Source of the DNA: Phoronis australis
Taxonomy: Eukaryota > Animalia > Phoronida
Assembly (NCBI GenBank): GCA_002633005.1
Contig: NMRA01000165.1
Span: 96,280 to 160,279, forward strand
Direction: 5' to 3'
Length of the DNA stretch: 64,000 nucleotides
Below the pieces are notes generated by a model. The model did no database searches, was not told the origin of the DNA, and saw only the letters and a program-made list of their open reading frames with translations. The position numbers and the translations under genes were made by a program. Of this stretch, positions 51,901 to 54,900 are shown piece after piece; position 1 is the stretch's first letter; each line of letters starts with the position of its first letter.

Positions 51901-54900
51901 GGACACTGTGTAAAAACAAAACAGACAATTTACTACTGGATAATATGACAGATGATAGATACACTACACAATTAAGAATTACATCAGGAGTTTGGCGACA
52001 TTCAGACAAAAGTGAAGACTAAGATCAATATTCTACTGCCTCACAAGGATGCAGTTGTGCTGATAGATATAAGATGAAAACAATTGTAATGAACTAAAGC
52101 AAATCACAGGTTAATAAAAATAATGTAGCACATTTATTGCTATTTGGAAAGACCTCATTCAATAATTCATTATCCATTCATACATTCCTCTAATTCTATA
52201 ACACAAGATCCGGTAAAAGAGAAAATGGGTGATCGTGGGGCCTATAATTATATAATTTTTTTTAAAAGTTCAGGCATAGGCAGTCTCACACAGGGCACAG
52301 TAGCTCCACTGTAATGAAACCCTCGCATCACCCTTGTAACTACAGAATATCACTGTGACCACTGTACAGCTGTATATGAGTGATGAACTGAAGCCATCCT
52401 ATAAATGCCTGTAGTCATCTGTTCTCCCATGATGAAGCACAAGGCTTTGTCTCCAGTTTTAGAACTATGATAAGCTTGAGCAGTAACTGAGTCTTGACTT
52501 AGGCATATCACAGAGAAATTTGCAAACTTCAACATAACAAAACAAGCGTTGGGTGGGGTTTCATATCTTAAGGACTTGAGTTTTGTAAACTTGTACTTCA
52601 TCACAATCCTTGCTAACAATGCAAAGACACAGAAATAGAGGTTGAAAGTACATTATTTTGTAGATATTGTTTAATAACATAATGGCTTATATAAATGATC
52701 TGCACATCATATATCAAGTAATTTTTTACCTCAAACACCTAAAACAGTATGTTTTCAGAGAAATCTTATCTATAAAGATGCATGCAGGATTTGTAGTAAA
52801 AAATCTCATTCCATTTGACGATCGATGTGGACGGTTGTATGAAACAGTCCCAATAGACGGTCAACTATGCTCCTTATATTTTCAGTGCACTTGTGAACTG
52901 TGGTTATATTTTTCCACCTCTATACCTTTATTGACCTCTTCCTTTACCTCTTGACAATTTTTGAAAATAGATCTGAAAACTGAGACCATATTCCAATGAA
53001 AATAGACAGGGGCGTTGTATGAAAAGGCCCCATTTTATATTCAACGTAAAAATATATAGGACCCTGGTTTATATTTATCGTAAAGCTTACTCTCTGAGTA
53101 TCTCAGCTGAAACTTGGGGTAGCAATTAAATGAAGAAAAAACCTGAACCAACAGTGTAATTTACACAAAATACGCAAATGCACAAAAATTTAAAGCTGCA
53201 ATGCATCTCTTCGCTAAGCTGTAAACGCTGATTTCTTAACCAAAGAGCTTTGGGCACGGTCAATGCCTAATGAATACAGCTCAAGTCATACACAATGTCA
53301 GCTACCAGCACCCTTTTCGAACACATAATTTTAATTCCATACATTATAGATGGCATTGCAGTAACACATTGGTAGTTTATAGTCCCATCCACACACAGCC
53401 TATACTAAACAACTTGGACTAGTACAACTTACCCTATGCAAACTTTTTAAGTAGAGCGTCCAAATACACATATTCCATAACAACTGGGTAAGGCTCCGGT
53501 GTGTGACAATGAATAGCTAATGAGAATACGGGGCGTAAAAAAGACCTGTCGGCATGCATGTGTACCCGCAACTGATAATTACTTGCGCCTTACCCCAGGT
53601 TTGCACACAGCAATTGCAAGTGGCTCCTAGAACAAGTTGTACCCTACCTCTATAAGGTGGAGTAAAGTGCCGTCCAGACACAAACTTACCCAACAACAAG
53701 TTACTCCTGTAATGAGTTTTCGCTAAGTTTTAGTGCAGTGTGAACACTACTTAACTAGAGCAACTTACCCCACTTGTACCATTCCTCCTTATCGAGGTAC
53801 GATAACTTGTTCTAGGGTAACTAGCACCACTTCTCATACCCGTGTAGCCGCAAACTTTAATTGGGGCAATTGGCAGAAGTAATATCAGATGCGGTTCATG
53901 TACAGACGGGGTTTTCTTTTGTCTGCCATATTTGATTTAGGAGTTCATTAATTACGGTATCATGCACAGAGTGGCAGAACTTCCATCTTACCCTATAATT
54001 ATAGTGTGCGGTAAGATGCATTAGTGCAAGATGTTCTAGGGTAGGCTGTGTGTGGACGGAACTGAAGTTGTCACAAGTGGGGCAAGTTGCACTAGTTAAA
54101 ATAGCATTCACACAGCCTCCAAAACTAGCTACAACTTGTTGTGTACTTAGTCACACAATAACAGGATGTTTGTAGGTTGTTATTGTTTATGAGTTTAGTA
54201 GTTTAATTGGTATTATGTCATGCGATTCCTAGTACAGGAAGTGTGTCATAGGTAACGTATCATATGTTGTTATGTAGTTGTGTGTATATATATTGTGATG
54301 ATATGTAGAATAAATCAGTTCAGTGTTCAGCTCAATTCTGTTCCCGTGTTGTTTATGCTATATTCTGTATCGCTGTCCTCGCTGTCGTTCGGGTCGCCTC
54401 CAGCTTGGAGTATACGTCTCGTGCTAGGCTGTCTCCCACATGCAACTTTAATGTGCCCCTTTTTCTTACACTTGTGACACGTTGAATTCTTGAACCAACA
54501 TGCCTCTGGATGGTGTGAGGGCTTGGCACATCTGTAGCACTCGGTGCTGGCTTTCCCCTTTGGTCTTGCCTTTGGATTGTCAACTCGCCGGCTTTTCTGG
54601 TCCCAATTTTTCCTTTTGGCCTTTACCACCTTTACGTCAGTGGAAGCTATATCACCTTTCATGGTTTTGTTTTCCATGAAAGTATTTTCTCTGGCTAAGG
54701 CGAACTCGACAGTTTCGTTAAACGTCAGTTCCTTTTCCCTTGACTTCTCAAGCAACTTTAGCGAAGTCTGCTCATTAGCAATTCCGCTAATAAGTCTGTC
54801 CCTCAATTGCTCGTCCAGTTTATCACCAAACTTGCAGGTAAGACTGAGGTGTTTGAGCGCGACTACATAGTCCGTAATCGACTCACCTCTATTTTGGTCT

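Follow-up and report, generated by a model that had tools for sequence, protein, structure and literature searches.

A 1,348-bp insertion in a myosin VI intron of Phoronis australis (positions 54137-55484) is probably a template-switch product of a Ty3/Gypsy LTR retrotransposon, which was integrated through two U3 ends and was dead on arrival, and not a domesticated gene. Positions are those of the window, i.e. the whole 64,000-nucleotide stretch of DNA that was analysed, and the coordinates of the features are collected in the table. The part of this insertion that the earlier note had examined is its inner joint.

Read on the minus strand, the insertion consists of the 265-bp LTR (55484-55220), a single G, a primer-site-like decamer (55218-55209), the ATG at 55208 and the Gag ORF, followed by a second, inverted stretch of LTR bases 1-207 (54343-54137; hereafter the arm). 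Both outer termini are U3 ends, TG...CA, and are bracketed by a perfect 5-bp target duplication; the chance of a 5/5 match at both ends is ~0.0013. The sole difference between the arm and the 5' LTR is at 54331, and the two share minority alleles at LTR 60 and 122 (54196/55425 and 54258/55363), which indicates one donor for both. The complete LTR is matched in run X5 by a 265-nt contig spanning exactly 55220-55484. Pol, the polypurine tract, the U5 end at the left and a direct second LTR are all missing, so that the copy does not have the two direct LTRs, polypurine tract and pol of a competent Ty3/Gypsy element. No other pieces of this Gag-bearing family were found elsewhere within the 64-kb window.

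The Gag codons span 55208-54330 and the frame ends ...TELS*, closed by a stop at 54329-54327 in the arm as had been claimed. The last residues and the stop come from the arm, T290 and part of E291 being encoded by bases common to both sides of the joint. The arm also supplies a convergent copy of the putative promoter (TATA box and initiator), aimed back into gag, and after the stop the only sense-strand 3' signal within the insertion is ATTAAA at 54207. The initiator-like element resembles the Inr consensus TCAKTY given for Mag A LTRs (PMC3601003).

Table. Features of the insertion and of its host gene (window positions)
Feature	Position	Strand	Basis or remark
Myosin VI intron, 8.6 kb, holding the insertion	51070..59708	-	GT/AG sites and frame from sequence
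Myosin VI flanking exons	59778-59709, 51069-50996	-	first coding exon 61267-61151
End of high-copy host repeat, landing site of the element	54065..54136	.	matches 60721-60792; contig depth ~2,000
Target site duplication, left copy, CAACT	54132..54136	.	one CAACT where X3 and X4 are empty
Inverted copy of LTR bases 1-207, U3 end outward	54137..54343	+	206/207 vs 5' LTR
Putative TATA box TATATA (LTR 149-154)	54285..54290	+	inferred promoter; points antisense into gag in the arm
AATAAA (LTR 173-178), initiator-like TCAGTT (LTR 179-184) directly after	54309..54314	+	sequence
Inner joint, 7-nt microhomology between gag/protease border (minus strand) and LTR 201-207	54337..54343	.	family records, arm end
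Gag ORF, 293 aa and stop	54327..55208	-	helical capsid region aa ~22-187, two CCHC knuckles, acidic linker
CCHC zinc knuckles (two), aa 224-237 and 244-257	54539-54498, 54479-54438	-	motif in sequence
Primer-binding-site-like TGGCGACGAG	55209..55218	-	one base past LTR, immediately ahead of ATG
Complete 5' LTR, 265 bp, TG...CA, 9-bp terminal inverted repeat	55220..55484	-	sequence
Target site duplication, right copy, CAACT	55485..55489	.	sequence

Judged from its sequence, the insertion originates from a Ty3/Gypsy LTR retrotransposon, both by the homology of its Gag and by the features of its LTR (TG...CA, short inverted ends, AATAAA, an adjoining primer site and a short target duplication). 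Gag is 46-48% identical to three polyproteins (E 1e-62 to 1e-63), all of which carry protease and reverse transcriptase and two of which carry RNase H and integrase as well, the integrase domain being rve. Two zinc knuckles, as found here, are a Mag trait. Pfam returned just a sub-threshold Retrotrans_gag match for Gag (E 0.004). The predicted structure is modest (pLDDT 64, pTM 0.37) and its nearest folds are the capsids of PNMA2, Arc, copia and Ty3, all of them with E above 0.001; the model thus lends modest support to a capsid-like fold. The LTR ends agree with the integrase att motifs of Mag A, taken from PMC3601003, at 7/7 and 11/12 letters. A metagenome scan gave 73 candidates that reduced to 6 distant loci (26-50% identity), none belonging to the Gag-bearing family.

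The host context had been missed by the earlier note. Four myosin VI exons lie on the minus strand, and the insertion is on the same strand as regards gag. Given its place in the intron and this shared strand, read-through by the host pre-mRNA would be predicted to fold a 207-bp hairpin; all 207 pairs form when the minus-strand RNA is folded, the one mismatch becoming a U-G pair. The 5' LTR puts AATAAA (55312-55307) and a donor-like GTAAGA (55234-55229) on the myosin VI strand (-). It is a speculation that a hairpin covering this AATAAA might lessen the harm relative to a normal sense insertion.

Several other features of the window were observed. High-copy repeat with internal inverted segments occupies 53381-54136 and 60674-60964, both within myosin VI introns. 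A different Gypsy family is represented by two copies with broken frames, 91-99% alike, at ~1-4940 and 19100-24200 (-); their reverse transcriptase is ~35% identical to P0003, and they are unrelated to the 293-aa Gag. At 11388-12389 (+) there is an uninterrupted 333-aa aldo/keto reductase frame (E 1e-48), adjoining a duplication spaced by 1.2 kb (8892-10591). A 667-base gap of N lies at 47143-47809, and four smaller runs of N are found elsewhere.

Position of the inner joint

It had been claimed that the inner joint falls on two functional boundaries, the end of Gag and a point just past the LTR poly(A) signal. The Gag half of this claim holds. The cut does come after the second knuckle and the acidic linker, being 33 aa past knuckle 2 and 7 aa past Y283, and the expectation that the protease begins after the linker is borne out by 3/3 aligned polyproteins, in which DTG lies 38-42 aa past the matching EY. 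This alignment puts the cut on the border between Gag and protease, upstream of the catalytic site. Of the poly(A) half, what stands is only the distance: AATAAA is at 54309-54314, as reported, and the arm, said to end about 30 nt further on, has its last base at 54343, 29 nt beyond the hexamer.

The joint is a 7-nt overlap rather than a point. Family contigs (record 4 of X1, record 13 of X2 and record 26 of X5) match the window down to 54337 and then diverge, and RNA reads that match to the same base and continue otherwise number 16 in X7 and 19 in X8; since the arm nevertheless reaches 54343, 7 nt are common to both sides. A random gag/LTR junction would have an overlap of at least 7 nt with a frequency of 3.9e-4. 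The joint itself is known from the window alone. No contig or read bridging 54337-54343 was found among those listed for X1-X5, X7 and X8; the search covered the listed pieces, contigs omit rare paths, and X7 and X8 do not cover the right flank.

Complementarity between gag and the LTR is concentrated at this place. There are 13 sites in gag with complementarity of at least 7 nt to the LTR, 4 of them in codons 281-289, and 2 of these 4 maximal matches pair with LTR 199-207. Even with the overlap excluded, 5 of 13 LTR-complementary seven-mers fall in the final 33 nt of gag, while none of 761 other 33-nt segments has more than 3 (p 0.036 vs shuffled LTR), a count that takes in overlapping words of one 9-mer and a bias measured inside gag, not pol. 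The linker is rich in A and the LTR in T and G, which makes them complementary in composition. Furthermore, 42% of the points at which the reversed LTR could be entered lead to a stop within 5 codons. The coincidence of boundaries therefore arises because sequence complementarity places the joint there, early stops being common. Under a uniform null, landing in both zones has a probability of ~0.5%, for zones drawn post hoc; this null favours the earlier note, and yet it is the wrong one here, as it ignores the bias in complementarity.

Downstream of AATAAA, CA dinucleotides are found after 15 and 20 nt and the joint after 23-29 nt, in a T/G-rich tract. In Mag A LTRs, U5 is taken to begin with such a tract, the borders being said to lack experimental support (PMC3601003). 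The poly(A) site was sought in the RNA runs X7 and X8 (348 and 338 reads, from about one fifth of each run); these gave no pile-up of read ends and, among the loose ends listed, none with poly(A), while the listed loose ends at 55219-55220 continue into varied flanks. Sense depth was 49 and 48 at LTR 37-84 vs 21 and 25 at LTR 181-228, a halving that would agree with polyadenylation close to the joint, as had been supposed, and is too coarse to place the site.

Polymorphism and read evidence

The copy is young and unfixed. An empty site with one CAACT, joining 54128 to 55484, is present in X3 and X4, two of the four runs of study P1; all four runs come from this one study, and X1 or X2 may be the source of the assembly. 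In total seven of the nine runs were compared (X1-X5, X7 and X8), X6 and X9 being left out. The copy is 99.6-100% identical to family contigs, which differ from the window's gag at 0/531 letters in X1 and 4/911 in X2. The ORF is intact because of this near-identity, and an open frame needs no selection. Variation within the family is biased to third positions in codons 1-190 (6/7 listed places), which reflects an active family. Contig depth was 118-235 over gag vs 5.6-8 over the flank, figures not taken as a copy number. In X1, X3 and X4 a low-depth LTR subfamily was also seen over window positions 55329-55484, with 16 differences per 144-155 letters.

Transcripts of the Gag-bearing family are present, ~87% of them in one direction over gag; X7 and X8 show RNA of the family at large. 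Opposite-direction RNA made up 23-41% of LTR depth in X7 and X8 vs 13% over gag. Its likely source is solo LTRs carried within host transcripts.

The read data of one run contain both U3 junctions: one X1 contig holds 80 nt of left flank with 43 nt of U3, and a second holds 416 nt of right flank with 160 nt of U3. A right-junction contig in X2 contains 29 nt of LTR, below the 31 required of a bridge. The locus contigs of X1 together cover 54057-54179, 54337-54415 and 55325-55900.

The X1 contigs are anomalous in two respects. After its 43 nt of U3 the left-junction contig jumps to the opposite strand at 54415 (joint 54179/54415). Further, the right-junction contig has 24 differences, all within 55325-55530, and the left has 7. 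The T>C share of changed places is 24/55 in X1 vs 11/64 in X4, 20/117 in X7 and 21/112 in X8 (Fisher p 0.002, 0.0003 and 0.001, respectively), an excess drawn from tallies rather than from individual contig letters in a run guessed to be DNA. T>C is the direction expected for A-to-I editing on the host (minus) strand, and the chance that X1 reflects A-to-I hyper-editing is put at about even. The contigs would fit an edited, folded-back cDNA if X1 is RNA and a different allele if it is DNA.

Origin of the insertion

The earlier suggestion of an RNA or reverse-transcription origin stands in its latter part. Reverse transcription is the best reading of the two exact U3 termini, the 5-bp target duplication and the 7-nt microhomology; an RNA 3' end or poly(A) site is not needed for it. 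The template of the arm starts exactly at the TG of U3 and would thus most simply have been plus-strand (strong-stop) DNA; an RNA template is disfavoured because RNA would have continued into the polypurine tract. On the proposed route, plus-strand DNA (U3-R-U5-PBS-gag) would have been extended to the A-rich Gag/protease linker, where its 3' end could pair with LTR 201-207, either of another plus-strand strong-stop DNA or of its own 5' LTR, and copying would then run back to the U3 start. Alternatively, as the mirror image, an aborted strong-stop DNA may have primed on the linker. Either route would end in a short duplex whose two att ends are both blunt and of U3 type; the family integrase could join these with its normal 5-bp stagger. 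Integrase accepts two U3 ends in vitro. The resulting copy is predicted to be unable to be recopied, because it is without pol, a polypurine tract and a 3' R in direct orientation. Its likely effect is at the RNA level, where host read-through would produce a 207-bp duplex open to ADAR and small-RNA pathways; a Gag useful to the host is the less likely outcome. In Drosophila, LTR-mediated template switches have overlap at 25/29 junctions, with a median of 6 bp (PMC5131818). Points against a template-switch origin include X1, whose contigs differ and which would be either an edited chimeric molecule or a different allele, and the halving of sense depth along the LTR.

A rearrangement after integration is unlikely, although it is the alternative that survives best. 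A full-length copy would have been followed by two template switches during host replication or repair, one using the 9-bp repeat of the LTR ends and the other the 7-nt overlap, which would swap pol and the 3' LTR for an inverted LTR piece. The target duplication could be kept in this way too, because the LTR ends share a 9-bp inverted repeat: the U3 start and the reversed U5 end have these 9 bases in common, and hence the duplication would survive. There would be microhomology at both joints, and arms from a single donor fit equally well. Against this, two events and a jump of several kb are required, the arms differ at 1/207 and the site is still polymorphic, which leaves little time, and the left junction in X1 is already flank-U3.

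It is somewhat less probable still that the U3 ends are real and the interior is mis-assembled or variable between alleles, for example by gap-filling between outward LTRs or in a longer palindrome. The five runs of N mark the window as a scaffolded assembly, and X1 has another inner joint. An assembler, however, would have no reason to join at a 7-nt overlap, and a 306-nt contig of X1, aligning to 54337 (its start inferred from bin depth), links the window's minority gag alleles (54356, 54367 and 54390) to the left flank.

The view of the earlier note, in which the joint follows functional borders and the product is a Gag expressed by itself, serving already as a domesticated gene or dominant-negative restrictor or able to turn into one, is very unlikely. 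The cut at the Gag/protease border, the intact 5' LTR, primer-binding site and ATG, the capsid-like fold and the post-hoc 0.5% for both zones speak in its favour, and there is a precedent in DRT2 (PMC10951436). As a functional unit, though, the "tidy stand-alone capsid gene" is unsupported: a domesticated gag would be fixed at its orthologous site and here the site is empty in X3 and X4, there is no divergence from which selection could be read, and identity to the family explains the ORF. The idea of a capsid gene with its own promoter fares no better, the sole sense 3' signal being the ATTAAA at 54207 and the arm adding a convergent promoter copy and a hairpin; the joint is explained by complementarity and common early stops. 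Known restrictors of Ty1 are C-terminal capsid fragments (PMC4599808, PMC10951436), whereas here Gag is near-normal and would more likely co-assemble than poison. DRT2 is widespread and transcribed and encodes a C-terminal capsid domain (PMC10951436); its geometry is unlike that of the insertion. As a domestication story the case is weak.

That the insertion belongs to a non-autonomous family whose terminal inverted repeats derive from LTRs, and which the family integrase moves like a Ginger-type DNA transposon, is highly unlikely: although the 207-bp inverted arms and TGTNR ends fall inside the Ginger1 range of 40-270 bp (PMC2836005), high-depth contigs and all listed RNA loose ends at 54337 enter one other sequence with an agreement of 0.98-1, the window has a single copy, and inverted repeats of at least 40 nt were found in 0/6 of the distant loci.

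Two further candidates were rejected. An autointegration product (inversion circle) does not apply, the inner joint being at LTR 201-207 of 265 and not at an LTR terminus (PMC7197481). DIRS elements are defined by a tyrosine recombinase and not a DDE integrase (PMC3950715), and the relatives found here carry an rve integrase.

Comparison with known systems

The closest systems are Mag-like Ty3/Gypsy elements (Metaviridae) of marine invertebrates (P0002-P0004, P0008 and P0009), which have a Gag 46-56% identical to that of the insertion, with two knuckles. In these relatives Gag is in frame with protease, reverse transcriptase and integrase; shared too are a TG...CA LTR with AATAAA and ends that fit the Mag A att motifs. 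Unlike them, the copy is without pol, a polypurine tract and a U5 end, and its second LTR is partial and inverted.

HIV-1 proviruses with deletions, inversions and asymmetric LTRs are common, inversions being found in 2 of ~78 (1.3% for each class) (PMC9278108). Such defective proviruses and retrocopies (PMC9278108, PMC5131818) share with the insertion a large deletion, an altered second LTR, a short overlap and normal integration; in the available text of these two reports, however, the LTRs stay direct and no integrant with two U3 ends is described. Among the matches listed in our search, which lay outside the older subscription literature, no Gypsy integrant with two U3 ends or inverted LTRs was found. 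A two-U3 integrant with a clean target duplication would show Gypsy integrase using U3-U3 products in vivo. U3-U3 copies resemble DNA transposons, and finders of direct LTRs miss them.

In avian retroviruses nearly 50% of adenosines are changed A-to-G in U3 or an inverted repeat (PMC12925331). In X1, changes at 24/40 and 7/16 sites would be of similar size; unlike those hypermutated regions, the window's own arms are unedited, and what X1 shows is an indirect signal.

Mu killer of maize (PMC3440606) resembles the insertion: part of an active element has been duplicated in inverted orientation, and one end is present twice. The hairpin of Mu killer forms by read-through from a flanking gene. 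A similar geometry is predicted here, and it is in geometry only that the insertion is an inverted duplication read through by a host gene. Mu killer differs in deriving from a DNA transposon, in its ~4 kb coding hairpin and in that silencing has been shown for it (PMC3440606), against a 207-bp intronic LTR stem here. It is doubtful, though conceivable, that reverse transcriptase and integrase have turned an LTR retrotransposon into a unit with terminal inverted repeats whose duplex, in the myosin VI transcript, silences the family in trans, which would make it a still-segregating animal "Mu killer" and also a worked example for the step at the origin of Ginger1. The polymorphic, intronic site means that carriers and non-carriers could be compared to test editing, myosin VI splicing and silencing of the family.

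With Ginger1 (PMC2836005) the insertion shares TGTNR ends and terminal inverted repeats of similar length. It differs in enclosing gag with no integrase-like transposase, in its 5-bp duplication (not the 4-bp CCGG/CCGT) and in being a single copy. The repeats of Ginger1 have been proposed to come from two oppositely oriented LTRs by a chain of events called unclear (PMC2836005). Integration of a U3-U3 product would offer a single-step route from LTRs to terminal inverted repeats.
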